Shown: positions 1,706-30,500 of the stretch, piece by piece
Layout: every line of letters begins with the position of its first letter
Numbering within the stretch: position 1 is the first letter of the stretch
Virus record (IMG/VR): IMGVR_UViG_3300028025_003604
Coordinates: 1,923-65,922 of that record
Length of the DNA stretch: 64,000 nt
Reading direction: 5' to 3' (one strand)
Source: a virus
Lineage: Duplodnaviria; Caudoviricetes
Notes under the pieces: model-generated
The model's database searches: none
Seen by the model: the letters and a program-made list of their open reading frames with translations, nothing else
Told to the model about the DNA's origin: nothing
Program-made: the position numbers and the translations under genes

Positions 1706-1935
1706 TTATCGGCGCGAAAGTTTTACATGCGATGCTCTTCACCGGAGCTAACGATGGACATCGGCCCTGCCCCTTACACGGGAGCAACCCACAAACAAGC
1801 AACACCCCGCTAACCACGGCCTAGTCACTTGCTACCCATCTTACCCCTTACATGTAACACGAGTAACCCACCCATCGCCTTCAGGTCTGATTTATCGTCC
1901 TGATGTTTAGCGTAGTCTTGAGGCTAATGGGTTGG

Positions 1936-1990
1936 ATGGTCTAGCGGTAATAACTCCCGCTACTGATGAGACGCAGAACGTCGAAACCAT
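1936..1990 (+). ncRNA. hammerhead ribozyme HH1 (type III)
   Basis: ATGGTC^TAGCGG-loop-CCGCTA CTGATGA GACG-CAGAA-CGTC GAAA CCAT; full core, three stems, GUC site at 1939-1941. Confidence 0.9.
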
Positions 1991-2001
1991 AATCATACAT
2001 C

Positions 2002-2175
2002 ATGAAAAACTTTATTTCAATCATCAAATTTTACTTATTAATCGCCTTGCTTAACCCATTCACCCTTGCCGGTTTAATTTCCGGCTGCCACGGGTTTACA
2101 TTCTTTGGCTTTGTGGTATCTGCCCTTGCTTGTAGTGTCTTCTTCCTAGGTGGAGGAGTTAAAGCGTTCAAATAA
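2002..2175 (+). CDS. small membrane protein (57 aa)
   Basis: Hand-translated MKNFISIIKFLLLIALLNPFTLAG...; two hydrophobic segments; lies between HH1 and HH2. Confidence 0.7.
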   Translation: MKNFISIIKFYLLIALLNPFTLAGLISGCHGFTFFGFVVSALACSVFFLGGGVKAFK

Positions 2176-2195
2176 TTCCCCCGAGCTGCTCACAA

Positions 2196-2247
2196 GATTA
2201 ACTGATGAGGGTTTAATACCCGAAACATCCTTCGGGATGTCTTAATC
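2196..2247 (+). ncRNA. hammerhead ribozyme HH2 (type I)
   Basis: GATTAA CTGATGA GGGT-TTAAT-ACCC GAAA CATCC-TTCG-GGATG TC^ TTAATC; cleavage after 2241. Confidence 0.95.
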
Positions 2248-2260
2248 AAAAAACACCACC

Positions 2261-2428
2261 ATGAAAGTTGAACTAAAAGAGAGAGAAGTATACGGAAAAG
2301 TGCTTCTGTACCCTAAAAACATTAACGCCTGCATTTTTGCTGATTTAATTGGCAAAAAGACATTCGACCAACTAGACCTCTTCCACATACAACAACTAGG
2401 ATACGAGGTTGAAATCATTAAACTATAA
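2261..2428 (+). CDS. small hypothetical phage protein (55 aa)
   Basis: Hand-translated MKVELKEREVYGKVLLYP...KTF...LGYEVEIIKL; A-rich leader. Confidence 0.75.
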   Translation: MKVELKEREVYGKVLLYPKNINACIFADLIGKKTFDQLDLFHIQQLGYEVEIIKL

Positions 2429-2438
2429 AAGCACTAAC

Positions 2439-2645
2439 ATGTACGCAAAATTATCAATGGTGATTGCATCACACCTAAGCGATGCGCAGCACGACTTTGA
2501 ATCAGGTAATGATAAGCACGGGCACTACCGCTTAAACTTCATCAAATTGCTAGTACTTCAAAACCAAAGTTTAGATAAAGAGGTCAATGAAGAGTATCTG
2601 TGGAAGGTATGGAAAGAGTGCGAAGTTGGGGCTCCAAAAGATTAA
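2439..2645 (+). CDS. hypothetical protein
   Basis: ORF 2409..2645, likely start MYAKLS at 2439; GAT-TAA end forms HH3 stem I. Confidence 0.75.
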   Translation: MYAKLSMVIASHLSDAQHDFESGNDKHGHYRLNFIKLLVLQNQSLDKEVNEEYLWKVWKECEVGAPKD

Positions 2646-2691
2646 CTGATGAGGATTCAATATCCGAAACCTGCTCCGGCAGGTCTTAATC
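2640..2691 (+). ncRNA. hammerhead ribozyme HH3 (type I)
   Basis: GATTAA CTGATGA GGAT-TCAAT-ATCC GAAA CCTGC-TCCG-GCAGG TC^ TTAATC; cleavage after 2685. Confidence 0.95.
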
Positions 2692-2705
2692 AAAAAAATT
2701 TTACC

Positions 2706-3044
2706 ATGGAAACCTTACAAATCAAAAAAATTACCGGCCTAACTGAACTTGAGAAAAAAGTATTAACTGCGCTAGTTGATGGCATGTATGCAGAATGGGG
2801 ATTCAGCGATGTTGGAGCTACCGACCTTTCTGAATCTACCGGCATACCAAATAAGTCTATTCGCGGCGTAATTGGTTCGCTAGTTAAGAAGGGTCTAGTT
2901 TATGTGGATGACCGCACTGACATGTGTGACTACCGCAGCAATGACCCTGCATGGGAGCCCATCATATACCTGCAAAACGATGCCGAAGCATTGGTACCTA
3001 ATTGGCAAGAGCAGATAGGCTTCAAATCTGTTATCGAAGATTAA
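2706..3044 (+). CDS. winged-helix DNA-binding protein
   Basis: Start METLQ at 2706; LTELEKKVL...DLSESTGIPNKSIRGVIGSLVKKGLV HTH pattern. Confidence 0.7.
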   Translation: METLQIKKITGLTELEKKVLTALVDGMYAEWGFSDVGATDLSESTGIPNKSIRGVIGSLVKKGLVYVDDRTDMCDYRSNDPAWEPIIYLQNDAEALVPNWQEQIGFKSVIED

Positions 3045-3088
3045 CTGATGAGACTTAATTAGTCGAAACGCCTTCGGGCGTCTTAATC
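3039..3088 (+). ncRNA. hammerhead ribozyme HH4 (type I)
   Basis: GATTAA CTGATGA GACT-TAATT-AGTC GAAA CGCC-TTCG-GGCG TC^ TTAATC; cleavage after 3082. Confidence 0.95.
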
Positions 3089-3101
3089 AAAATCCAATCC
3101 C

Positions 3102-3338
3102 ATGAATGTTATTTTAGTCTCTCGAGACGGCATACTAGATACGCCGGTACTCGTGAAGCAGAACACCACGGCAGAAGCCACCTTTGAATCCATTGTTCGC
3201 GACCTCCTAGGTGAAGACGCCGATGATATAAACTTCTTTTGCGATACTGCCATCGATAAGGTTAACAACTACCTCAAGCCTTCCGGTATCACCATCTCTT
3301 GGTTTGTCGATATTGACGTAAACAACTATAAAAACTAA
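3102..3338 (+). CDS. hypothetical protein
   Basis: ORF with A/C-rich leader directly after HH4. Confidence 0.75.
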   Translation: MNVILVSRDGILDTPVLVKQNTTAEATFESIVRDLLGEDADDINFFCDTAIDKVNNYLKPSGITISWFVDIDVNNYKN

Positions 3339-3341
3339 ATC

Positions 3342-3413
3342 ATGAAAAGCACAACTACCGCTATCATCATTGTCATTGTCTTCTTGTTAATCACCCTAGC
3401 AGATAACATATGA
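3342..3413 (+). CDS. 23-aa hydrophobic peptide
   Basis: MKSTTTAIIIVIVFLLITLADNI; ATGA overlap with the next ORF. Confidence 0.45.
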   Translation: MKSTTTAIIIVIVFLLITLADNI

Positions 3414-3574
3414 GAAAAGTATATTTTTTCAGCTATCAACTAGCTGATGGGAACGAAATACTCTGCGCTATTAAGACTTGCATATATCCTGAACGGACCA
3501 AAATATGGAAGCGCCTCTTAACCCTTGTTATTAACAGAGAGGACGTAGTAAGTATTAAGTACTCCCTAGAATAG
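3410..3574 (+). CDS. small hypothetical protein (54 aa)
   Basis: Hand-translated MRKVYFFSYQLADG...; fills the gap. Confidence 0.55.
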   Translation: MRKVYFFSYQLADGNEILCAIKTCIYPERTKIWKRLLTLVINREDVVSIKYSLE

Positions 3575-3585
3575 TTTACCCCCGA

Positions 3586-3629
3586 ACTGCCCCCATACCG
3601 ATGGCATCCGGTTCGTGACCGGAGGCAGT
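3586..3629 (+). ncRNA. mini tRNA-like element E1
   Basis: ACTGCC/GGCAGT closing stem, small hairpin CCAT-ACCG-ATGG, T-arm-like TCCGG-TTCGTGA-CCGGA. Confidence 0.65.
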
Positions 3630-3650
3630 CCTAATCAAAATCCAAACCAC

Positions 3651-3917
3651 ATGAACTATCAACAAATCAAAGCCGCTCAGAAGGAGCAGGGCTACGACCA
3701 ATGGCAACACATCATCAACACCGGCCATGCATGGAAGACGGAGGGCGCTATAGGACGCGAGGCAATGCACTTGCTAGAATCCGGCGCATGTATGCTTCCC
3801 AAGACTGCCTTCCAAGACTACTATGGCAACAGAATCCCATCACGTGACGACCTCAAGGCCGGAACTAAAGGGACCTTCCAAAACTCAGTAAACTATTACA
3901 CTAACAATGCTTGGTAA
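3651..3917 (+). CDS. hypothetical phage protein
   Basis: Start MNYQQ at 3651; GHAWKTEGAIGREAMHLLESGAC. Confidence 0.75.
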   Translation: MNYQQIKAAQKEQGYDQWQHIINTGHAWKTEGAIGREAMHLLESGACMLPKTAFQDYYGNRIPSRDDLKAGTKGTFQNSVNYYTNNAW

Positions 3918-3937
3918 CAGGCGCAACTATTAACACT

Positions 3938-4150
3938 ATGGAAAAAGTAACCTTCGAATTTCACCCCTACGTCCAAGACTCTTGGGATTGCATGATTTCA
4001 ATTCACAGAGGGAACGAACTTGTTGTTCAGTACAAATTTCAGGCGCACATTATTGATGGGGATATTCAATTTGACCTTGACCCAGAATATGCTTACAACC
4101 CGCCTCAACGATACCTATCATTTATCACTTCAACCTTATTAAATCGATAA
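3938..4150 (+). CDS. hypothetical protein
   Basis: Likely start MEKVTF. Confidence 0.65.
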   Translation: MEKVTFEFHPYVQDSWDCMISIHRGNELVVQYKFQAHIIDGDIQFDLDPEYAYNPPQRYLSFITSTLLNR

Positions 4151-4154
4151 CACT

Positions 4155-4382
4155 ATGAAAAAGAATCTAACCGCAGAAATGCTATTAAACGAATTGCTTG
4201 ATATGAAAGCAAAGCACTACGACCTGTCTAAAATTGAACTAAGCTATCGTTTCGACCCTGATAGTGACGTAGAACCAATCACCTATGTTGGTGAAGGTCT
4301 CTTCGATGCAGATACTAACAATGTTCTAGAAGAACTTGTATTTATGACCGATGCGTCTGAATACGAAGGAGAGGGAATATAA
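4155..4382 (+). CDS. acidic hypothetical protein
   Basis: ORF in operon context. Confidence 0.7.
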   Translation: MKKNLTAEMLLNELLDMKAKHYDLSKIELSYRFDPDSDVEPITYVGEGLFDADTNNVLEELVFMTDASEYEGEGI

Positions 4383-4391
4383 CCTCCACCC

Positions 4392-4432
4392 AACCTACCG
4401 CCATGGGCGTGGGCTTCGATGCCGAGTAGGTT
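4392..4432 (+). ncRNA. mini tRNA-like element E2 (imperfect)
   Basis: AACCTAC/GTAGGTT 7-bp stem, CGCC-ATG-GGCG hairpin, GGC-TTCGAT-GCC T-like hairpin. Confidence 0.55.
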
Positions 4433-4452
4433 CTCATCAAAACTCAAACAAC

Positions 4453-4614
4453 ATGCAACAACAAGCATCAAAAACACGTAGCCACTTTGTACTATCTCTA
4501 GCTAAAAGTTTCTTAAGAGCCGGAGCATGTGTATGGCTTTACCTAGGCGACTATCAAGTAGCTGCCGGACTATTCTTAATCGCCGAAACCTTCGGTATTC
4601 TAGAAGAACTTTAA
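4453..4614 (+). CDS. small membrane protein
   Basis: Start MQQQASK; HFVLSLAKSFLR...LIAETFGILEEL. Confidence 0.7.
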   Translation: MQQQASKTRSHFVLSLAKSFLRAGACVWLYLGDYQVAAGLFLIAETFGILEEL

Positions 4615-4624
4615 AAACTAAATC

Positions 4625-4819
4625 ATGAGAAACAGAATCCACCCACCAATCTACTCTGTCAAGCCTAGTGGCCTAATCATCAAGCGCTGCAATAAACTGA
4701 GCGCATATGCAAGAAGGATGGAAGTATTGAAGGAACTCGGACTCGACGTAAAGGAATACGCCAAAGAGTGCAAGCTAAGGTCCTTATTCAGGATGCAGGC
4801 TGCAGGTCTTCTAGCATAA
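4625..4819 (+). CDS. hypothetical protein
   Basis: ORF in operon context. Confidence 0.65.
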   Translation: MRNRIHPPIYSVKPSGLIIKRCNKLSAYARRMEVLKELGLDVKEYAKECKLRSLFRMQAAGLLA

Positions 4820-4826
4820 TACCCCC

Positions 4827-4872
4827 GAGCTAGTAGGAATGACCGAAACCGGAGCGATACCGGTACTAGCTC
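4827..4872 (+). ncRNA. mini tRNA-like element E3
   Basis: GAGCTAGT/ACTAGCTC stem, linker, ACCGG-AGCGATA-CCGGT 5-bp stem with 7-nt loop abutting the closing strand. Confidence 0.7.
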
Positions 4873-4890
4873 CTCATTAAAACCTCAAAC

Positions 4891-5112
4891 ATGGATTACC
4901 CTTTAGAACTAAAAAAATATCTAGCTAGTAAGATGGCTAAGGTAGATGTTGAATGCATGGGAGTAGACTTCCAACAAGCATATGAATACCATTTAGCCAA
5001 CGACCCATTTACCCTCCTTGAATATTGGGCCGAATACTTCGGAGCATTTGACGACATGGGCGAAAACTTATTCATGGAGCTAAGCCCTGAGTCTATAGCA
5101 AAAAATAAATAA
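4891..5112 (+). CDS. hypothetical protein
   Basis: ORF directly after E3. Confidence 0.7.
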   Translation: MDYPLELKKYLASKMAKVDVECMGVDFQQAYEYHLANDPFTLLEYWAEYFGAFDDMGENLFMELSPESIAKNK

Positions 5113-5124
5113 GATAGTCCCCCG

Positions 5125-5168
5125 AACTGCGAGGTATGACCGAAGTAGGAGCGAAACCTACCGCAGTT
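5125..5168 (+). ncRNA. mini tRNA-like element E4
   Basis: AACTGCG/CGCAGTT 7 bp, GGT-ATG-ACC, GTAGG-AGCGAAA-CCTAC. Confidence 0.7.
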
Positions 5169-5212
5169 GCTAATCAAAAACTCAAGAGCGAGAGTCCAAA
5201 CGCACCAAACCT

Positions 5213-5557
5213 ATGTCAACTACTACAACATCAACCTTACAGATGCACGTCTTCACATTAGACAACGCACTAAGCTACCTGAAAGAAAATTTACAAACAG
5301 ACACAGACTTCAGCGGTGATAATGGCCCTGAGTTTCTAGATGATGACGCCGATGGATACGATTCAAATTTAGAGTACTACCTAGAAATGTTTTGGTCGAA
5401 GCACAAGCCGAAAGATGAAAAGACCCTGAATAATTTCTTCTTAAAGTTTTTTCAGTTCATGCAGAAGAGGGACCAATACTATTCAAACATTGAGTTCGAC
5501 CTTAAGTTTATTGGCGACCAAATAGTTTTAGCAGTGATGATGGAATGTGATTGCTAG
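5213..5557 (+). CDS. acidic hypothetical protein
   Basis: ORF with AAACCTATG leader. Confidence 0.7.
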   Translation: MSTTTTSTLQMHVFTLDNALSYLKENLQTDTDFSGDNGPEFLDDDADGYDSNLEYYLEMFWSKHKPKDEKTLNNFFLKFFQFMQKRDQYYSNIEFDLKFIGDQIVLAVMMECDC

Positions 5558-5564
5558 AACCCCT

Positions 5565-5608
5565 GAGCCGAGAGAGTGGATAAGGCAGAGCGATACTGCC
5601 CTCGGTTC
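5565..5608 (+). ncRNA. mini tRNA-like element E5
   Basis: GAGCCGAG/CTCGGTTC, D-loop-like linker AGAGTGGATAA, GGCAG-AGCGATA-CTGCC. Confidence 0.7.
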
Positions 5609-5623
5609 CTAAATCCCAAACCT

Positions 5624-6169
5624 ATGAGCCTACAAGACGCGGTAATCACCGCAGAAAAAAATGGTGGAGTCTCTTACAACCTTCACCATGGGTACATGAA
5701 TCCTGAGACCGGATACATGGTATCCCTAGCAGGAAGAGAGAGGCAGTCGCCATCACTCACCTATCACAACGTCCTCGGTTTTGTAAACGACAACATTGAA
5801 GCATTCGAGCCCACAACCTTCTTAGGCCTATGGCAGGAAGAAGGGACGTGGATAATGGATGTGTCTTTATGCATCCCGACACTAGCGACTGCGCTGCGGG
5901 TTGCGGAATCAAATGGCCAACGTGCCATCTACGACAATGCTAACAAAAAATCTATATACCTAAACCCTAACCGCATGGAAGAGCTAATCGAACAAATCAA
6001 GCAGCATGACTTTTGGTACATGATGTCCGAAGACTCAAGAGTATTTGACCAAGGTAAAGAGACCCAGAAATCGATCGAAGAGGGGCTTAAAAATTACCCT
6101 AAAGAAGAGGTCCTGAATAATCTACCCGAACACCTTCACGAATTTATAAAATCTATCTATGGCGCATAA
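5624..6169 (+). CDS. two-domain early protein; N-terminal domain possibly SAM-lyase-like
   Basis: Start MSLQDA; GYMVS...GLW...DVS...A...Q.AIYD pattern; second domain begins at in-frame ATG 5975. Confidence 0.55.
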   Translation: MSLQDAVITAEKNGGVSYNLHHGYMNPETGYMVSLAGRERQSPSLTYHNVLGFVNDNIEAFEPTTFLGLWQEEGTWIMDVSLCIPTLATALRVAESNGQRAIYDNANKKSIYLNPNRMEELIEQIKQHDFWYMMSEDSRVFDQGKETQKSIEEGLKNYPKEEVLNNLPEHLHEFIKSIYGA

Positions 6170-6377
6170 ACTAACAGGCGTAGAGCTCTACAATAGCGAG
6201 CTCAAGCGCAAGACAAAAGTATACGACGTTGCAAACAAAAAACTAATCGCTGAATTCGAAAGCGTGTGGGCTGCCTCCAACTACACCGGAGTCAAATGTA
6301 GTTACATCACCCAGTGTATGAGTAAGAAGTACCGCTCACATACAAATCGCCTAGGCATAACAATCACCTTCAGATGA
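6159..6377 (+). CDS. stand-alone NUMOD1-like DNA-binding protein
   Basis: VYD...LIAEFESVWAASNYTGV...ITQC motif. Confidence 0.65.
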   Translation: MAHKLTGVELYNSELKRKTKVYDVANKKLIAEFESVWAASNYTGVKCSYITQCMSKKYRSHTNRLGITITFR

Positions 6378-6462
6378 TAACACTACTAATCGTTCCTATT
6401 GCACTTGCTATCCTTATTGGTAACAATGCACTTAGTCCTGAATCTAATTTAGACTAACCCCC

Positions 6463-6509
6463 GAACCGGAAACCTAACGAGGTTATGGTATTCGCTCTAC
6501 CTCCGGTTC
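6463..6509 (+). ncRNA. mini tRNA-like element E6
   Basis: GAACCGGA/TCCGGTTC, AACCT-AACG-AGGTT, GGTA-TTCGCTC-TACC. Confidence 0.6.
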
Positions 6510-6522
6510 CTAAACCTACTTT

Positions 6523-6624
6523 ATGAAAAAGTTTAATTGGACCTTCTTAATTGCATGGACAACTATCCTCACCATAACATACATGTTGTGGTCATTCATC
6601 TTTAAACTAATATCCTACATATGA
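6523..6624 (+). CDS. 33-aa membrane peptide
   Basis: MKKFNWTFLIAWTTILTITYMLWSFIFKLISYI; ATGA overlap with the next gene. Confidence 0.5.
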   Translation: MKKFNWTFLIAWTTILTITYMLWSFIFKLISYI

Positions 6625-6860
6625 AAAGTACATTTCAACAAGTGATGGATGCAATAAATAACGGCGAAAAATTCTCATGGAATTTTAACGGCCTTACTGC
6701 ATTCAGAAACACCGACAGGTTAGTTCATGAAATACCTAACCCAACCGAGGCGTCCATTGGATGGATACTTCAAGAGTTCTGCGTTAAAGCATTATACGAT
6801 GCTGATTTATTAATCTCCTTCGAGCCATCACCTGAAGGGTTAAAAATATATTACAAATGA
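6621..6860 (+). CDS. hypothetical protein
   Basis: ORF in operon context. Confidence 0.65.
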   Translation: MKSTFQQVMDAINNGEKFSWNFNGLTAFRNTDRLVHEIPNPTEASIGWILQEFCVKALYDADLLISFEPSPEGLKIYYK

Positions 6861-6956
6861 GAACTACCTACCCAACAGAAACCCTATCATTCAACGATTG
6901 GATTATCTACATCCATAAAGAAAACATCCGTATTAGAATTCAAAAACTAAACCACT

Positions 6957-7148
6957 ATGAACAAAATCTCGGCAGCAAAAAAAGTGTTTCACACTATCAA
7001 CGAAGAATTGGACAAGGTACTATTGGGGGAAGAAAGTTCCCGCCGATTGGTTGTGCAGAAATTGAAATTGATTAATGAGGAACTATCCGATGCAGTAATT
7101 GACCTATTGAAAAAAAATGTAACCTATGAACAAGAGCGAAGTATTTAA
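6957..7148 (+). CDS. hypothetical protein
   Basis: ORF with AAACCACTATG leader. Confidence 0.6.
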   Translation: MNKISAAKKVFHTINEELDKVLLGEESSRRLVVQKLKLINEELSDAVIDLLKKNVTYEQERSI

Positions 7149-7476
7149 TGGCCTATGTGAGTATGCAGTTGAAGTTACCGGTATCGATATAAGGTACGCC
7201 AAAGGAAGACGTGAAGAGTATGTAAGGCTCAGGGCCGCTATCATGGTTATCCTTATGAACTACTACGGAGTCACCACTACATTGGCCGGACACTTTTTTA
7301 ATCGCGACCACACCACGGCAGTACACCACAAAGCAAATCACCCATGGCGATATAAGTCCGACGATGAATACGCCTATCTGTATGATGAGTTGGTGAAGCA
7401 CGTTTTACTATGTAAAAGAAATCAAGTAGACCTAGATGTACAAGAGGTACTCGAGTACATTAAATTAATTGGTTAG
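7126..7476 (+). CDS. DnaA C-terminal (domain IV)-like HTH protein
   Basis: R...VRLRAAIM.IL...TTTLAGHFFNRDHTTAVH matches the DnaA RDHTTV signature. Confidence 0.75.
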   Translation: MNKSEVFNGLCEYAVEVTGIDIRYAKGRREEYVRLRAAIMVILMNYYGVTTTLAGHFFNRDHTTAVHHKANHPWRYKSDDEYAYLYDELVKHVLLCKRNQVDLDVQEVLEYIKLIG

Positions 7477-7482
7477 TGAATA

Positions 7483-7571
7483 ATGCGGGTAGCTTAATGG
7501 TCACAATGGAAGTGACCCTTGAGGGAGGAAAGCGCTTAAATGAGATGTGGGTTCGATTCCCATCCCGCGTT
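7483..7571 (+). ncRNA. aberrant tRNA-like RNA (expanded D-loop, stub anticodon arm)
   Basis: ATGCGGG/CCCGCGT acceptor, GCTT/AAGC D-stem, GTGGG-TTCGATT-CCCAT T-arm. Confidence 0.65.
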
Positions 7572-7797
7572 CATAAATATAAAAGTTGGCGAGGTGAGAT
7601 ACCTTGATTACACCTGAGCAGGATGGTGGCCAATGGATGCTGCTAGTTATTAAGCCTATAGGATGAAATACCCTTGTACCGATGCCTTGCGGTTGGGTTA
7701 GACAAAGTTTTCTTGCGTTGCGGGTTCTATTAGGCGTTTTTTCATATCCCGTTAAAGAAAGCAAAGGGGCTTATGGTTGTGCCAGAACAACCAACAT

Positions 7798-7891
7798 AGT
7801 CAGGTCGCTCAAATTTTGGGAGCACATGCATCATTGTGTGTTCAATACAAGTCTGCTTAGGCTTGTGCAGGTTCGAATCCTGTCCTGACTA
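7798..7891 (+). ncRNA. tRNA-like RNA with non-canonical anticodon loop and long variable arm
   Basis: AGTCAGG/CCTGACT acceptor, GCTC/GAGC D-stem, GCAGG-TTCGAAT-CCTGT T-arm. Confidence 0.65.
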
Positions 7892-7976
7892 CAAACTTAT
7901 GCACAGAGTTATTCATGTAAGTATTTATACTGAATGTAACGCTCTTGCATAAACGTAGATTTGTAAAAAACAACCT

Positions 7977-8201
7977 ATGAACCAAACAACAAACCATTCG
8001 TCTGAAACGCTTAATATAACATGTGCTTATCCAAAAACTCAAACTGAATTTTCGTATGTAAGCGCTTCTCACCATAGTGTAATCGTTATAGTAAGCTCAC
8101 TATATCAAAAGCTATCAGACAAAGAAAAGTTGGAAATGCTTTCTAAATTAAATGATTGGACTTACAATGAAGCACTTAAAATTTTTAACCAAACCCAATA
8201 A
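7977..8201 (+). CDS. hypothetical protein
   Basis: ORF with AACCTATG leader. Confidence 0.6.
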   Translation: MNQTTNHSSETLNITCAYPKTQTEFSYVSASHHSVIVIVSSLYQKLSDKEKLEMLSKLNDWTYNEALKIFNQTQ

Positions 8202-8204
8202 TAT

Positions 8205-8453
8205 ATGGAACCACAAACCATCGAGCAACCATGCTCCCAAGAGCCTATCGCCTCAGTAGAGTATACTCCAACAAAGCAGGAGGCATTACGGCAGTATGAA
8301 ATTAGAATAGAATTCCTATCAAGAGGATGTATTGTTCGTGTAGGCTGTAAGTCTATACCTTTTGAGAGTGTAGATGCAGCAATGAAATGCTTAAGCGAGT
8401 ATGTAAAAGACCCTATCACCAAAGAAAAAGAGTGGGTGAAAATCTTAAATTAA
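8205..8453 (+). CDS. hypothetical phage protein
   Basis: IEFLSRGCIVRVGCKSIPF. Confidence 0.7.
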   Translation: MEPQTIEQPCSQEPIASVEYTPTKQEALRQYEIRIEFLSRGCIVRVGCKSIPFESVDAAMKCLSEYVKDPITKEKEWVKILN

Positions 8454-8460
8454 AGATGTT

Positions 8461-8591
8461 AGTCAGGTGGCGGAATTGATAGACGCTAAGTTAAGTTTAC
8501 ACACGAGATGCGACCTCATTAAAAGCTATAACGATGAGTTTAAATTGGTTCAGAGAACCACCTCTTGCAGGTTCGAATCCTGCCCTGACTA
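8461..8591 (+). ncRNA. tRNA-Leu-like frame with a ~80-nt insert replacing the anticodon/variable domain
   Basis: AGTCAGG TG GCGGAATTGATAGACGC ... GCAGG-TTCGAAT-CCTGC CCTGACT A. Confidence 0.65.
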
Positions 8592-8604
8592 CAAAAAGTA
8601 GCGT

Positions 8605-9225
8605 ATGAAATTAAATTCCAACATTCCTAGCTTTAAGGCGCTAGTAAAAAAATCCTACTTCACGAAGGACGCCAACGATAGTAACGAATACTACAACGTG
8701 TATGTCTTCGGCCTTCAGTCAGTATCCGGTAAGATAGTCACGTTCCATGTACTAACCGACTCCGGTATGCTAAGGAGCAGGGTGCCATTGTCTGAGATAT
8801 ATACCAAGGTACCAACGGGTGACATACCATTTAACTACAAGCAGCTATGGGATTGCTTTAGTGAGAATGTATCCGTAGTTGAGTATGACTTCCTTGCATT
8901 TCACAGAGCTCAAGTAGTACTGAGAGATGGCAGTAAAGTATGGGCCACGTATGTATTCACTATTGATTGGTTCAACAACCCATATAGTGATGAACCTTCC
9001 GACTATAAGTGCGGCCACGTGCTAGAATCGGATGATGGCTACTTGTTATGTATGCCGAACAACAGAATCTTTTGGAAGGATTCTAATTGGGTAACGAAAA
9101 GTTTACCGGAGGACCTGAAGCAGTTCAAGGTAGACACCGACCTTCCTTCTGTTGAAAACCAATCGGACCGATGGGTGGCAGAGGATACCAATTCATTTTA
9201 TTACGACATAATACAAGAGCTATGA
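8605..9225 (+). CDS. conserved hypothetical phage protein
   Basis: LWDCFS...YVFTIDW...PNNRIFWKD motifs recalled from aquatic phages; function unknown. Confidence 0.7.
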   Translation: MKLNSNIPSFKALVKKSYFTKDANDSNEYYNVYVFGLQSVSGKIVTFHVLTDSGMLRSRVPLSEIYTKVPTGDIPFNYKQLWDCFSENVSVVEYDFLAFHRAQVVLRDGSKVWATYVFTIDWFNNPYSDEPSDYKCGHVLESDDGYLLCMPNNRIFWKDSNWVTKSLPEDLKQFKVDTDLPSVENQSDRWVAEDTNSFYYDIIQEL

Positions 9226-14733: not shown

Positions 14734-15729
14734 ATGAAAGGATTAAAACTTACACCGACTTCGAAACTAACGGAGTCGGAATGGCAGCGCCTTCGCCAGA
14801 CATTCACACTTAGAGGTATGGTTGGTGGATCAGATGCCGGAACCTTATTGGGTTGGAATAAATGGAAGTCTCCTATCTCTATGTACTATCAGGCCCTTGG
14901 CTTATCTCCTGTACCTAACCTAATGAATATCGAAATGGCGATGGGTAAGATGCAGGAAGACAACATCGCTGAATCATGGCAGTACTGGGATGGCGAAGAA
15001 GGATTCATTAAAAACATTGTCACCAAAAACAAGGTGCGCAAGTATAAAAAGATCAAAGCGATCATTGAGAATCCTAAGTACCCTACTCTGTTTGCTAACA
15101 TCGATGGCCTTATCACTTTACACCCAGTTCGGGGGAAGAAAAAAGGTATCCTAGAAATCAAGAAGATTAACGGCATGACCGTAGATACTTACATCGGTGG
15201 CATACCTCCTCAGTATATCGCACAGGTACAGCACTACATGTTAGTGTGTGATCTTGAGTGGGCTGAGTTGTGTATGCGTGTGGATGGTAGACAACTACTT
15301 GTTGAAACCATTGACGCTGATTTTGAAATCCAATCTACGATCCTTAACGAAGCTAACAAGTTTAACGAGCGTGTTAACACAGCCCTTGAGGCCATCAAGT
15401 CTTCAGGTATAGATGATAAAGAAGAGTTGTATGGTATCGCTGCTCAGTTCGAGCCGGATGCAGATGACTCAGATGATTTCAACTACTTCATATCAGAGAA
15501 GCATAAGCTAAGAGAAACCGAGGTAACGATCCAAGGTACACAAGAACATCAGCTATGGGCGGAAGAGTATAAGACTATCGCCAACAGCATCAAGGACCTT
15601 GAGTCTGGTAAGCAGCTCCTTCAGAATAAATTAAAACAGGTAATGGAAAAAGAAGGCGCCAGTATTCTGGATCTGCCGGATGGTAAGATTACTTGGAGAA
15701 AACAATTCAACATTAAACTCAACAAATAA
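14734..15729 (+). CDS. YqaJ/lambda-exonuclease family recombination nuclease
   Basis: VGGSDAG, ANIDG, LEIK, YIAQVQHYM motifs. Confidence 0.88.
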   Translation: MKGLKLTPTSKLTESEWQRLRQTFTLRGMVGGSDAGTLLGWNKWKSPISMYYQALGLSPVPNLMNIEMAMGKMQEDNIAESWQYWDGEEGFIKNIVTKNKVRKYKKIKAIIENPKYPTLFANIDGLITLHPVRGKKKGILEIKKINGMTVDTYIGGIPPQYIAQVQHYMLVCDLEWAELCMRVDGRQLLVETIDADFEIQSTILNEANKFNERVNTALEAIKSSGIDDKEELYGIAAQFEPDADDSDDFNYFISEKHKLRETEVTIQGTQEHQLWAEEYKTIANSIKDLESGKQLLQNKLKQVMEKEGASILDLPDGKITWRKQFNIKLNK

Positions 15730-24556: not shown

Positions 24557-27500
24557 TTATTGATTTGGAAATTCAGATAATGCTTCTGCTCTTGCGTCTT
24601 CGATCACACCTGAGATGTAAGCCTTGAGCTCTTTTCTTCTTTGCTTCCTGTCAGGGATAGCGAGTATCTTGCTGATGTCTTTCCATTCTTCTTGGAGATA
24701 CTGCTTAGTGATTTGACCTGAACGCTTAGTGTACTGGTAGTACTCATCGTCGGTCATGTCACGAGTTTCCTCGCTACTAGGATCGTCGCTCACATATAGA
24801 GGGCGAGTCTCAGGCTTACCGATGTAGATACCGTTCTCGTTAAGAGCTGCAAGCAACTCATCCTTACTAGGCTTACCTACTGTGATAGGTAATAACTTCT
24901 CTGAAGTAGATGGTGTAACTGGTTCACCGAATACATCTAGGATCGGATTTAATCCATCATTCAAATAAGGAATGTCTCTGTAGATTCTTTCAACACCCTT
25001 AGCCGCCTTAATCGGAGAGTCCATCGCTTCACGTGTGAACTTGATAGCCTGCTGAGTGAAGTTTGATACAGCCATTGTTTTAGCTTGATCAGAACCCCAG
25101 CTTATAATACGATCTCCAAGACTTGATGACTGGTTGTATTCTTGCTTAGGCTTGATCACCTCAACGAAGTCTTGAATACCTTTCATTACAGACTTGTCGT
25201 ATAATGCTGTAACCATACCTGCTGCTGCGATTTTTGCCTCGTTAGTAGGCTGATCACTGCTATTGTACTTTCCGCTATCATGCATAGCTCCTACAGCAGC
25301 TAACACTGGAGCAACAGGCCAGTCCTTATAAGAGATGTATCTGCCGCTCTTAAGCTTGATAGAGTAAGGTCTCCATCCGCTCTTCATTAACTCGTAGTTT
25401 TTCTGAGGATCGCCGGAACCATTAGCTGTTACTTCGAATAGATCATCATCATCGTCACCAGTTAATCCGCTTAACATTATGAATGTTGATAAACCGATAG
25501 TAGCCTTGATGGCGAAGTCGGCTCTCTCATCTGCAGTAAGCTTTCTTCTAACGTTTCCTTTTAAGGAAGTATCAACAACTGTACTTCCAACGGCAGATTT
25601 TACATAACCCAATGGAGTGTAGTTTAAAGCATTCTCTGTAAGGTTAACAACGATACGAGTGAACGGTAAAAACATTCTAGATAGTTTAGTAGACTGCTGG
25701 AATGAAAGAGCTAATTTGTACACAGGTCTCATGAATCCTTCTGGCTCGTAGTTAAGAGTAACTCTCTTACCGAACTCATCAGCCTCCTTCTTAATGTCCT
25801 TGCTTCTACCTTCTTCTAAGATCTGACCAACCCTTCTTCTGTATCTTACAGTGCCCGGAAGGTATCCTTCTGACTTAGCCTTATCAGCTGCCTCAGCTTT
25901 TTTCTCAGAAGTCTTGTTTAGTATTTCGTCAACACGCTTCTTAATATCCATATCAGGATTAGCCTTACCTTCTTCCTTAGCGGTATTGTAAGCCATCACT
26001 CTTGAGATAGCTTCTGAGTTTGCTCTAGCAAATGCAGCATCCGTTGCAGCTAGTGCACGGCCCACATACTTTAATACCTTTGGACTTAATCCACCAGCCC
26101 AGTCTAATACCTTACCAGCTTTATCTCCAGCCACTTGCTTCCAAGAGAAGAACTCTAGGATGTTGCCCTGCTTGAACTTATCTCCGTCTTGAGCGGTTAC
26201 ACCTGTCTTTAAAATATCAGCAGCGTCATTTGCGCCCTGCTTAATTCCAGCTAAGAAACCTTGGATACCATTAATGAATGGCATTACGCTCTTGGTTTTG
26301 ATTGCCTCACGAGTACCAACCACAGCACCTTCTGCGAAAGAGTTCCATAAGTTGGCAAAGAAGTTGGTAGACTGGGTAGTGATACCACTCAGGATGTGAG
26401 CGTACCATATAGCCTCCATAATATCTGTGGCAGCTACCGGAGTAATTGAGCTGATGTAGTTTCCTAAAGCATAAGTCGCCTCATCCTTTGGCAAACCTTC
26501 GTCAGCATTTCTTACCTCTTTAGCTAGGTCTGTGATAGTCTTGCGCTGCTCTTCTGTTAATGGCTTGCCGTTCTCGGATTCTACCTGATCCATGATCTTC
26601 TTAACATAGAACTGTAACATAGATGGCGAACCTTTAGAGTTCTCATAGAAGCGTCTGAATGCCTGTATAGCCTGACCAAGTTCTGTACCTAATGGCGCCA
26701 CTTGGTTTACTAATTGGGCCTGCTTTTCACTTAACCTTTGAGCGGTTTCTTTATCACCCTTAATCTCCGCCATATTGATAGCGGTGTCGATCTTATCCAT
26801 AACCGCACCACTCATCCAGATCCTAACACGGTTAGGTATATCTTGAGGCTGAGTAAGAAGATAGTCTAATGCATCTTCTGGGTTCTTTTCATCTATAAAT
26901 GCTTGAGCCTCTTCAGCTGTTTGTTTATTGGAGACAACAAAGTATTTCTTTGCGTCATCGTTTATCTTAGCTATGGTATCAACTCCTCTGTCAGGGAAAG
27001 TTTTAGATAACCCCCGAGCTCTCTGGCCCTCTTCAAGGTCACCAACAATATCTTCCACTGATGGGTTAAGGGCTGGGTCATACTTAACATCTTCAATAAG
27101 ATCCATGGCCTCATCTTTAGTCAACCCCTTTTCATCCATAATGATTTGAGCAACATCTTCGTCACTAAGTTTACCTAACATATTAGCTACACTCTTTCTG
27201 GTATCGGCATCGATATTGGCGCCACCTTTAGAAAGCTGTGCACCACCAACCTGATCTTTAAAGAAAGCCTTAACAGCTAAGTCGGTAGCGTTATCGATCA
27301 TAGACTTATCGAAGTCTATACCCTTACCCCACTTATCCATAAGGTCTCTTATAACCTTTTGTACGTAGTTGATTAGGGTATTGATAATATCTCCAGATGT
27401 AGCCTGATTGTAGCCGTATACTGTGTCTCTAAACTCATTCTTATCCTTGGCCATAATACCGGCCATGTTATCTCTGAAATCTTTGTTCGTTAATAACTCA

Positions 27501-30500
27501 GCCATGAACTCATTAAAGTTCTGTAGGCCATAGTAAGCACCGCTTGCCTTTTCGCCAACGATGTCTGGATGTTTTGCCTTTAAGAACTTATAGATGTCTT
27601 CAAGAGCTTTGTACTCAGTGGTACCTTTGTTCTTGTTGATACTATCAAGAGTAACCCAGTGCATCATCTCGTGAGCAGTGGCAGAATACTGGTTGGCGTA
27701 GATGTCTGTAGCGATACCTATAACCGGCTTGTCAAGGAATGTTCTTGGACGAGAGTATAAACCTGCAACCATACCACCAGACTGGTTGAATATGTTTGCT
27801 GTTTGACCTAGGTTATACATCTCAACCTTGTCCGCCTTTGGCATCTTAGAGATCGCCTTGAATATAGGCTGGTATGGACCTTCAACTTCTGCTAGCTTTT
27901 CAGCTACAGTCTTTACATTCTCGCCAGTTAAATCTGTAATGCCGAACTTAGATAGAGGTACGTAGTTGCTTCCCTCAGCTAGGTTTATGTTCGGTAGGCT
28001 ATTGAAATCCTTTAGATCTTCTACAGATAAACCTCCACCGATCTTAGCTTGAGCACGCTTTGCGTTAGGCTTAAACTTAGCAAGAGCAGGATTTGTTTCA
28101 ACCTGATTTAGGGTTCCCGGCTTTACCTTGCTGTATACTTCTGGCTTTAAGGCCTCTGTAGTCTGAGCTCTTAATAGTTTCTTTCTTCCAATGTTCCATT
28201 CTGCTACAGTCATAGGATACCCCCGACCTGCCGCAGCTTTAGAAACCCAAGCAACCTGCTTGTTTGGATCGAACGCTTGTCCCGGATATTGTTTTTCAAA
28301 CATCCTTCTTGCTGGCTCGATTAAGTTAAGTGGGTCCTGATTAAAAGGATAAACCTTCCCTTTAGGTACACGTACCACATAACCGTAATCGTTAGGAATG
28401 TTTCTTTCCAAAACGTCAGGTCTGGTGTAATACATTGAGATACCTACACCCGGACGCTCATCTCTACCAGTTGCTCTGGTATTGCTACCGAACTTATTAG
28501 GATCGATCTTCTTAATATTCTTATCGCTGTAGTGATAGAACAAGTAGTTGCCCTTATCATCTTCAGTCATTTGTTTTTGTGTAGTGGCAGGTAATTCTAC
28601 CTTACCAACTTTTTGTTGAACAGGAGAAGCAACACCTTTTATACCTGAACCATACGGCGCCACTGTCTGTGACTGTTGTGTCTTAGATTTAAGCTCTGGG
28701 TATTTCGCCCTGAACTCAGGAGTCATAATATCGTAAGCGTTAATCTTCTTATCAGGCACACCTACTACAGTACCAAGAACATTGTTCTGGTAAGTAGAGT
28801 GATCTGACACTCCACCAAACCCTGTTGGTTTCAACACGAGCATGATGTCATTCATGTCGAAGTTGTTGTCCTTATAGAAACCGTCTCTTAAAGATTCGTA
28901 GTCAACAAATAATTTGTTGTCATCTAAGAACTTCTTAAGCTCAGTACCTTTCTTTTCTTTTTGATCATCAAGAGCAATCAAGAAATCTTTTCTCTTAGGA
29001 CTCTCTAATAATTCTTCAAAAGAATTGAAGTCGTTAACGATCTTGTTAAGACCTGAGATCTTAGAGATGCTGTTAAGTTTTTCTTTGAACTTAGCGTAGT
29101 CATCTTTAAAGATCCCTTTCAACCTTTGAACAGTAATATCTGCAACACTCTTGTTAAACAGCTTGCTCTTTGAAGGAGAACCTGAAATGATAAATAAGTA
29201 GTCGCTTTTCTTGATGTTATCGTTAACAAACTTCTCACCCTTGCCTGTAGCCCAGATAATATTCTCTTTTCTATTCTTTGGATCAAGAGCGAATGAAGGA
29301 CCAGCATCTAAGTAATGCTCGCCATCAATAACACTATCGTAATAATTACCACGACCTAATTGATCTGCTACCCAGAACCAAACCTTCTGGCCCTTTGCTT
29401 GAATCTCATCGATCAAAGATTTGATGTCGATCTTGTCTTCTGGTTTTACAAAAGACAGTGGATAGCTTTCTTTAAACCTTACTGGTTCTGCTTTCGGATC
29501 AGCAACCCTTAACTGAGTTGGCGTACCTACGTTCTCACCAATATTGTTTTTAAACTCGGTAACGTTCTCCTTACCTACTACTTCTGATATATCTGTACCA
29601 GTCTTAAGAGCGTTAGAAATTTCCTTAGCCTTCTTAATGAAGGTGGCTTTATCTGTGTCGCTAAGTAGTGGATCAAGGCCTAAGTATTTTGCAATCTCAT
29701 TTACGAAATCGATTACGGCCTGCTTGAAACCTGTAGGAACCGAATCGAAATCAATAGTACCATCAGCCATCAAAGCAATAGATTCAACCATTGCTTCATC
29801 TACCTGTGTTTCTTTTCCTTCGTAGTTATTCTCTGACCAGTTAACAATAGCCTTAGCATTGTTATTAGTTTTCGCCAACTGAGCTAAACCATTAGCCATC
29901 TTGTCGTACAGATTTCTATCTGTATTTCTAATGATGTTCATCACAGGGTGAGAAGACTCGTGCCATGCAATGTTCCAGTCCTTAGAGTTTTTGATTGCAG
30001 CCAAGTTGATAGACACAGTTCCGTCTTCATCAACGAATACACCTTGAGTAGATTTATCCTGACCTGACTCACTAGCAAATGAATCTGCGTTATCGTAGAT
30101 CTTAAATTTAACTCCCGAGCTGGCAAGTGTCTTAGCAGCTTGGTTTACATCAGCAATAACCTTCTTGTGGATAGGACTGCTAACAGTTACGTTAGGTAGA
30201 TCTACTGGAGCATCTGCAGTTACTGTGAACTTAGGACTCTTATCAGTATAGTTATCCTCTATATTAGAGAACTCTTCTGGTAATAAACCAATCTTCTGCT
30301 CAGCAAACGGACGCTCTGTTGCGCTCATGAAACCTTCATCACCTTTCTTCTTGATAGATCCATCAGGATTTCTCATTTGCTTACCGAAGTTTACCCATGA
30401 GTTTTGACCACGTGTCTCAGTAGTCATTGCTCTTCTTGCGAGAGGAGTAAACATTCTTGCGTGAACGTCCCATGCATTCTCTTCACCTACGGCGCCAAAA

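Follow-up and report, generated by a model that had tools for sequence, protein, structure and literature searches.

Why should the stop codon of a protein-coding gene lie within the helix of a ribozyme, and what does the arrangement do for the genes on either side? The question is raised by the left end of a freshwater tailed phage of roughly 66 kb, in which successive small genes are separated by hammerhead motifs and two of the genes terminate inside the motif that follows them. The virus record (IMGVR_UViG_3300028025_003604) comprises 65,922 bp with direct terminal repeats of 127 bp, and the window, by which we mean the whole stretch of 64,000 nucleotides that was analysed, corresponds to its bases 1923-65922; all positions given for this phage are window positions. 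The phage encodes a primase/helicase, a RecE-like exonuclease, an integrase-like protein, a portal and a large terminase. A blastn search of deposited phages with window positions 1900-9000 returned no match, and near-identical DNA is contained in freshwater metagenome runs of 11 studies. Positions 1900-7000 hold a run of small plus-strand ORFs whose leaders are A-rich and lack a Shine-Dalgarno sequence. Elsewhere in the window, a minus-strand ORF of 2864 aa (24557-33151) has no Pfam match.

Hammerhead units and flanking ORFs at the left end

The pattern CTGATGA..GAAA has five matches in the window, against 1.2 expected, with four hammerhead units at 1963, 2202, 2646 and 3045. The first of the four is of type III, and the other three (HH2, HH3 and HH4) are of type I and have an identical stem I, with GATTAA as the 5' strand and TTAATC as the 3' strand. 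The units and the ORFs around them are as follows.

1936-1990, plus strand: HH1, a type III hammerhead with which the gene run opens, its predicted cut at 1941/1942; assigned by its core, an Rfam Hammerhead_3 score of 26.4 bits and its fold
2002-2175, plus strand: ORF upstream of HH2; its stop lies 20 nt before GATTAA, with the CCCCCGAGCTG motif between
2194-2249, plus strand: HH2, a type I hammerhead whose stem I is the same but overlaps no stop, with a predicted cut at 2241/2242; 72.7 bits with our own covariance model
2261-2428, plus strand: ORF of 55 aa behind HH2; the block 2195-2428 is common to the related locus L160
2439-2645, plus strand: P0001, an upstream ORF of 68 aa with no family; AAA GAT TAA, its two final codons plus stop, falls within the linker
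2638-2693, plus strand: HH3, a type I hammerhead with stem I open and stems II and III capped; 69.6 bits, minimum-energy fold of -15.7 kcal/mol
2640-2645, plus strand: 5' strand of HH3 stem I, GATTAA, identical with the Asp codon and TAA stop of P0001
2686-2691, plus strand: 3' strand of HH3 stem I, TTAATC, the first bases past the predicted cut at 2685/2686, opening the leader to the ATG at 2706
2706-3044, plus strand: P0002, an ORF of 112 aa with a TrmB-like winged helix (PF01978, E 6e-8), ending GAA GAT TAA
3037-3090, plus strand: HH4, a type I hammerhead; Rfam Hammerhead_1 23.5 bits, own model 70.4 bits, and fold
3039-3044, plus strand: 5' strand of HH4 stem I, GATTAA, identical with the Asp codon and TAA stop of P0002
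3083-3088, plus strand: 3' strand of HH4 stem I, TTAATC, past the predicted cut at 3082/3083, opening the leader to the ATG at 3102
3102-3338, plus strand: ORF of 78 aa downstream of HH4; its ortholog in L160 also lies behind the orthologous hammerhead

The initial annotation had described GATTAA at HH3 and HH4 as the final Asp codon plus the TAA stop of the upstream genes, and the coordinates and ORF translations agree with this exactly: P0001 ends with GCT CCA AAA GAT TAA at 2645 (C-terminus APKD) and P0002 with GTT ATC GAA GAT TAA at 3044 (C-terminus VIED). It had also placed TTAATC at the opening of the downstream leader, which is likewise the case at both units, the next ATG following the predicted cut after 20 nt at HH3 and 19 nt at HH4. 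HH3 thus reads AA, GATTAA (2640-2645), CTGATGA (2646-2652), stem II (2653-2665), GAA, stem III (2669-2684), C17 (2685), TTAATC (2686-2691) and AA, and HH4 has GATTAA at 3039-3044, the core at 3045-3051, C17 at 3082 and TTAATC at 3083-3088. The earlier description holds to the letter at HH3 and HH4, two of the three type I units; at HH2 the upstream stop lies 29 nt before the core and the overlap is absent.

P0002 is a real gene, with a TrmB-type winged helix and 14 database homologues; a search of viral contigs with this single protein recovered one distant locus, which was left out of the comparisons. The core of HH3 also contains an ATG from which the frame of P0002 stays open across the ribozyme (ORF 2649-3044), and uncut RNA could in principle yield P0002 with 19 extra residues. 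We take this ATG to be a chance occurrence and not a meaningful start, because its counterparts in HH2 and HH4 meet a stop within a few codons.

Several lines of evidence bear on the identity of the units. The core, CTGATGA plus GAA (C3-U4-G5-A6-N7-G8-A9 and G12-A13-A14), is present in HH2, HH3 and HH4 and invariant in 48 related units; the same three copies have the A15.1-U16.1 pair, which is kept in 48 of 48, and C at H17 (GTC triplet). For each unit the minimum-energy fold is the hammerhead fold. In the alignment of the 48 units, the window's three included, 99.4% of pair cells are paired and compensatory change is seen at 11 of 14 pairs; pairing and compensation of this extent arose in 0 of 500 shuffles, and sliding the pairing partners gave pairing of 23-41%. 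Stems II and III vary freely among units, and the sequence of stem I is nearly fixed. The same is seen close to home, as stems II and III differ between the window's three copies, and between HH4 and the orthologous unit of L160, with pairing retained. A covariance model built from the 48 units, with HH2, HH3 and HH4 part of its training set, found exactly three units in the window at 70-73 bits, and the next match scored 13 bits. Rfam scores fell below the gathering thresholds (HH4, 23.5 versus 34 for Hammerhead_1; HH1, 26.4 versus 48.5 for Hammerhead_3), and HH2 and HH3 were absent from the Rfam listing even at E up to 10. A gathering score is a curation cut-off and not a biochemical feature. 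Judged by core, pairing and predicted fold, HH2, HH3 and HH4 are complete type I hammerheads, and we infer self-cleavage of the window's units from their class. The one RNA run with matching sequence gave four short contigs, each lying within genes and none spanning a hammerhead.

Loop II in the 48-unit alignment reads U-N-A-N-N, with the U invariant and the A present at 90% or more, and the A at -7 is invariant. This hints at a putative tertiary contact between loop II and stem I, which would also constrain the penultimate codon to NNA.

At gathering thresholds, tRNA was the sole Rfam match in the window. Features resembling tRNA lie at 7483-7571, 7798-7892 and about 8540-8600; the tRNA-like gene there carries a 28-nt insertion and scores 35 bits with the Rfam tRNA model. 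ARAGORN reported an odd tRNA with a two-base anticodon in this region, and a third T-arm-like sequence lies further on.

Upstream stops and protein C-termini at viral hammerheads

The overlap between stop codon and stem I is not a product of chance, and it is conserved in the hammerhead lineage of the window. Among 81 window ORFs of at least 60 aa, three end in GAT-TAA or GGT-TAA, and two of the three are P0001 and P0002. Conservation of the overlap in relatives, which the initial annotation had named among the points on which its proposal turned, was looked for and found: in a first set of 74 related viral hammerheads with G(A/G)TTAA, an upstream ORF of at least 40 aa stops at the stem I TAA in 40, versus 174 of 1776 control G(A/G)TTAA hexamers without a following hammerhead core in which the TAA is the stop of the longest local ORF. 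For these counts, loci were selected by sequence patterns and ORFs were defined as the longest stop-to-stop frames rather than by a gene caller.

We then located the upstream stop in sets of increasing breadth. A first scan of viral contigs for hammerheads with a TTAATC 3' strand gave 39 loci with 63 type I units, 60 of which have an upstream ORF of at least 40 aa. The stop is the stem I TAA (-3) in 33 of the 60, and other stops include TAG at -8 (seven units), TAA at -9 (three) and UGA at +1 (three). The last codon before the stop in those 33 is GAT in 23, GGT in nine and GCT in one, and it covaries with the 3' strand (TTAATC, TTAACC and TTAAGC). When stem I was left unconstrained, a second scan returned at least 77 type-I-like units, at least 71 of them evaluable; among the matches listed, the UGA inside CUGAUGA is the upstream stop in 19 of 71, and most others stop a few bases before stem I. 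Finally, an exhaustive scanner run over all loci gave at least 196 units, from which ten within 250 nt of a locus end were dropped, leaving 186 evaluable, and 13 further units without an upstream ORF of 40 aa were left out, leaving 173. Among the matches listed, the stop of these 173 type I units falls between -15 and +1 in 146, at -3 in 45 and at the core UGA (+1) in 30. In viral loci L002-L158, a stop at the core UGA makes the upstream protein end in (I)N.

The reading frame in which ORFs run into the ribozyme is also uneven. Counted per protein cluster (146 clusters, among the matches listed), frame use is 47:29:9 for stem I sequences ending in TAA (p 2.9e-6), and, counted in the same way among the matches listed, 18:34:16 for other stems (p 0.014); the commonest frame in both stem classes is the one in which the ribozyme supplies the stop. 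In the unconstrained scan, among the matches listed, -3 is used by 0 of 7 GGTTAA units and by 3 of 15 other TAA-ending units. A preference for -3 is therefore a lineage-specific trait; what holds more widely is that ORFs terminate within the ribozyme or right up against it.

A terminal Asp should accompany the ribozyme and be missing without it, a check on homologues that the initial annotation had also called for. The P0002 family has 15 database proteins, five of which end in I-(E/Q)-D and three in I-E. It is represented at 80 metagenome loci, of which four run off the contig and 14 repeat the context of another locus, leaving 62 distinct evaluable loci. An intact type I hammerhead directly follows the stop in 4 of the 62, and all four of these homologues, which represent only two lineages, end in D or G, versus 4 of 57 at loci without a hammerhead (Fisher p 1.3e-4). 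The expectation is thus borne out for D and G taken together. In L183 (about 1125-1180), a P0002 homologue ends GGT TAA (G) and is followed by CTGATGAG; GAAA and stem III are missing, the hammerhead is incomplete, and the element appears to be a decayed hammerhead.

A protein of 52-53 aa, 96% identical between contigs, offers a similar case, ending in ITQD in L006 and ITQG in L029 beside a hammerhead. Its orthologue in L019 ends in ITQTDEKEIN, and there another gene sits between the ORF and the same hammerhead. The end of this tail (reverse strand of L019, about 820-850), GAG ATT AAT TAG (ending EIN), resembles the 5' strand of the linker in the +1 frame, and the tail may be the relic of a former hammerhead junction.

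Junctions between small ORFs carry other elements as well. At P0002 homologues in L167 and L169, a short helix with a GGTTCGA(C/T)TCC T-arm stands in place of the hammerhead; such helices lie at 263-277, 655-671 and 868-884 of L167 (three in 1.8 kb) and at about 1520-1565 of L169. The L167 helix matches the T-arm part of the tmRNA model, and ARAGORN made no tRNA call for the T-arm-like elements at junctions in L167, L169, L162 and L171. At a junction of this sort, the helix may serve as an RNase P-type signal for processing. Hairpins take the place of hammerheads at homologous junctions elsewhere. Within the window, a second junction element occupies a position equivalent to that of the hammerheads at 3579-3642, 4822-4888, 5119-5180, 5560-5622 and 6458-6526. 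In order, it has CCCCC, a hairpin nested within an outer stem, CTAA(T/A)C and a leader that reaches the following ATG; it shows compensatory change in 9 of 13 predicted pairs across its five copies, and matches no Rfam family; it is a candidate processing element.

A further motif, (T)ACCCCCGA(A/G)CTG, is over-represented in the window, with 40 matches at up to two mismatches versus 11.7 expected. Examples lie at 1309, 2178, 3579, 4822, 5119, 5560, 6458, 27011, 42129, 47909 and 57225 on the plus strand and at 15135, 21309, 22730 and 40702 on the minus strand. A looser form of the ACCCCCGA pattern falls on the plus strand in 24 of 33 matches, including matches inside genes of either orientation, and in the early region the motif lies 2-6 nt after stop codons. 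It looks like a strand-biased DNA-level signal.

The linker as a boundary between ORFs

Comparison of related phages delimits a linker that begins at -8 (AAGATTAA..), takes in the hammerhead and its leader, and extends as far as the next ATG; its edges are breakpoints of homology, and its conserved positions are accounted for by the hammerhead. When 32 pairs of units with at least 90% identical interiors were compared for their flanks, both flanks were alike in five, only the upstream flank differed in four, only the downstream flank in two, and both differed in 21. Alignments of six pairs place the beginning of homology at -8/-9 (the AAG(A/G)TTAA edge) in 4 of 4 with unrelated upstream sequence, and in pairs with unrelated downstream genes homology continues through the leader and stops at the ATG. 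Blocks shared by the window and L160 start at 2195 (5' edge of HH2) and at 2637 (5' edge of HH3). In place of the P0001 cassette, L160 has two other ORFs and an extra hammerhead, and of its four junctions two have the stop at TAA -3 (proteins ending SID and IQD), one at the core UGA (KIN) and one at a TAA at -10.

The same boundaries are met at the level of strains. Contigs of related strains in three freshwater DNA runs diverge from the window at 2194, 2227, 2695, 2697 and 3037, and in the contig that diverges at 3037 the same GAT TAA terminates another upstream ORF, which is open over 12 codons or more and ends in TLQD. Variants in those runs number one in loop II of HH4, several in leaders and none in stem I or core of HH3 or HH4, an absence that is not significant at about 1.4% overall divergence. 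The initial annotation had suggested that the GATTAA..TTAATC unit may be a mobile junction module that inserts at gene ends. The junction module is upheld in a weaker form, with a conserved linker, breakpoints at its edges and a terminal Asp or Gly that tracks the ribozyme; autonomous insertion would go beyond the data, which fit exchange of ORFs between shared linkers.

We propose that the hammerhead is probably a conserved processing linker between ORFs that carries a stop codon and a leader and bounds exchangeable ORF cassettes. The three type I hammerheads would act as self-cleaving inter-cistronic linkers in the left-end run of small genes, each reading AA-G(A/G)UUAA, CUGAUGA, stem II, GAA, stem III, C, the cut, UUAA(U/C)C-AA, an A-rich leader of ~13 nt and AUG. 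On cutting of the polycistronic RNA, the upstream message would retain the ribozyme body (stems II and III) as a structured 3' end, and the downstream message would begin with a 5'-OH, 19-20 nt before the AUG in the window; in the first scan, the predicted distance from cut to ATG is 19-23 nt in 33 of 63 units. The stop would be supplied by the linker and not by the ORF, and ORFs would be swapped between shared linkers by recombination with breaks at -8/-9 and at the next ATG, such that an ORF joined in frame with the immutable ribozyme stop (TAA at -3 or UGA at +1) would need nothing more. The RecE-like exonuclease of the phage is counted in favour of recombination between linkers. As read from the sequence, the last one or two residues of the upstream protein, (K/E/Q)-(D/G), are linker-encoded, because the linker supplies the stop in the frame that is joined. 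Stops at -3 and +1 number 40 versus 7 in the GAUUAA lineage, where the linker model alone predicts similar use, and the excess of -3 is unaccounted for by this model because TGA is an ordinary stop in this phage, ending 16 of 81 window ORFs.

The footprint of a bacterial ribosome extends about 12-15 nt 3' of the P site. A ribosome with the TAA in its A site would cover stem I and CUGAUGA, and in terminating it would have to unwind the 6-bp stem I; termination and folding of the ribozyme would therefore exclude each other in time, and this would hold for nearly all units whatever the offset. We treat this clash as a tolerated side effect and not as the reason for the overlap. Tentatively, the two could be joined in a single picture, a possible one in our estimate, in which the hammerheads are the joints of a plug-in ORF system: a stop in two frames, a self-cutting RNA and a leader would allow any ORF to be terminated, excised and translated, and the ribosome at the stop would time the cut, with release after the first round of translation.

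The initial annotation had inferred that translation of the upstream gene could gate cleavage; in our estimate it is unlikely that the overlap was selected because a ribosome terminating on stem I times or throttles self-cleavage and in this way controls separation of the messages. The geometry fits such gating, as a stop at -3 puts the ribosome over stem I and CUGAUGA; with stops between -15 and +1 in 146 of 173 units among the matches listed, occlusion would be general, and there is no sign of selection moving stops away from the ribozyme. However, the position of the stop varies over this whole range and over all three frames, HH2 lies in the same operon with its stop 29 nt before the core and no overlap, and homologous junctions elsewhere bear T-arm-like minihelices or plain hairpins and not hammerheads. 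Moreover, cleavage is irreversible, and transient occlusion can only delay it. Given the variable offsets, HH2 and the replacement of hammerheads at homologous junctions, the overlap does not appear to be a dedicated gate.

Translational coupling by unmasking, in which the terminating ribosome would melt stem I, free the UUAAUCAAAA leader and aid downstream initiation whether the RNA is cut or uncut, strikes us as improbable. The short A-rich leader lacks a Shine-Dalgarno sequence and has the 3' strand of stem I as its opening 6 nt, the stem is AU-rich and only 6 bp long, and the recurrent spacing between cut and ATG (19-23 nt in 33/63 units) would suit such a role, but cleavage would free the leader anyway, and about 60 nt separate the stop from the next ATG. 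Very improbable, too, is neutral compaction alone, with short deletions in a size-limited genome having fused ORF ends to a ribozyme that happens to contain stops, and with cassette exchange playing no part. In its favour, tight junctions are the rule throughout, stops are followed within 2-6 nt by the other junction motif, and a deletion model also predicts over-use of the frames that supply a stop; it leaves unexplained, however, the identical linkers beside unrelated ORFs with breakpoints exactly at linker edges, as well as the bias of -3 over +1, and the comparisons with L160 and between unit pairs already suggest replacement of whole ORFs between linkers, not small deletions. That the units act mainly as DNA, as recombination or nicking sites, or are inactive relics with an incidental ribozyme-like fold is scarcely credible, for although they mark recombination boundaries and all score under the Rfam gathering thresholds, every position of the catalytic core is kept, stems II and III covary as their sequence changes, which is the signature of selection on RNA pairing, and all units lie on the coding strand between co-oriented genes.

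Relation to known systems

The proposed processing linker shares features with several known elements. Like the attC site of integrons, a structured element that bounds a cassette where its ORF ends, it is structured and lies at an ORF end; attC, unlike the linker, works as DNA and together with an integrase. Synthetic ribozyme insulators such as RiboJ set the 5' end of every cistron, as the linker would, and differ from it in being engineered. Among covariance models, RAGATH-1 (RF03152) and Hammerhead_1 (RF00163) likewise describe type I hammerheads whose stem I is short and AU-rich; HH4 is a partial match to each, scoring 23.1 against a gathering threshold of 56.3 for RAGATH-1 and 23.5 against 34 for Hammerhead_1; the upstream hairpin of RAGATH-1 is not evident at HH4.

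In evolutionary behaviour the closest system, as far as the portions of the literature considered here extend, is the PeSL cassette of T4-type phages (Arbiol et al. 2010, PMC2839356), also the subject of Comeau et al. 2014 (PMC4122927). From the parts of the 2010 paper drawn on, PeSLs are likewise small conserved intergenic regulatory modules beside non-essential ORFs, and ORFs are likewise shuffled among related phages by recombination between the modules. What is found here has the same form, a conserved intergenic module beside small variable ORFs with homology breakpoints at the module. The make-up differs, in that a PeSL consists of a sigma-70-like promoter and a terminator stem-loop, as set out in those parts, whereas the linker combines a predicted self-cleaving ribozyme, a leader and a stop codon.

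Type I hammerheads of phages and prophages have been described as flanking single small genes of no assigned function (Perreault et al. 2011, PMC3088659; de la Pena 2017, PMC6155905; both cited from partial text), and processing of long phage transcripts into gene-length mRNAs has already been proposed, in the section of PMC3088659 used here. Compared with the published phage hammerheads, as presented in the same portions of the two papers, the window's units have the same catalytic core and three-helix topology, and they differ in that the upstream stop lies in stem I or the core, that the last residues of the upstream protein are predicted to be ribozyme-encoded, and that unit and leader together form a block of homology. 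They also differ in scoring below the Rfam gathering thresholds. The terms 'stop codon', 'overlap' and 'termination' have 0 occurrences each in PMC3088659, and a literature search that covered main texts in part found no account of a gene whose stop lies within stem I or the core. The presence of two UGA triplets in CUGAUGA, like the enrichment of stop triplets in ribozyme cores, is pointed out in a preprint (bioRxiv 10.64898/2026.03.05.709948). In the portion considered, the preprint makes an argument on the origin of the code and presents no real genes terminating there, whereas here the core UGA is the stop at 30 of 173 units and the -3 TAA at 45 of 173, among the matches listed.

The biological role of bacterial and phage hammerheads is called open in reviews, including the parts of PMC6155905 considered here. 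To this question the present analysis adds that the upstream gene usually ends inside or against the ribozyme, that the ribozyme would dictate the last residues of the upstream protein, and that ribozyme and leader would together form the homologous unit at which small genes are exchanged among related phages. The question of role thereby becomes one for direct experiments on the interplay of translation and cleavage and on cassette exchange. For annotators, there is a warning that C-terminal D or G residues and stops within CUGAUGA may be ribozyme-encoded, and for those who build compact polycistronic expression parts, the linker would offer a natural design.
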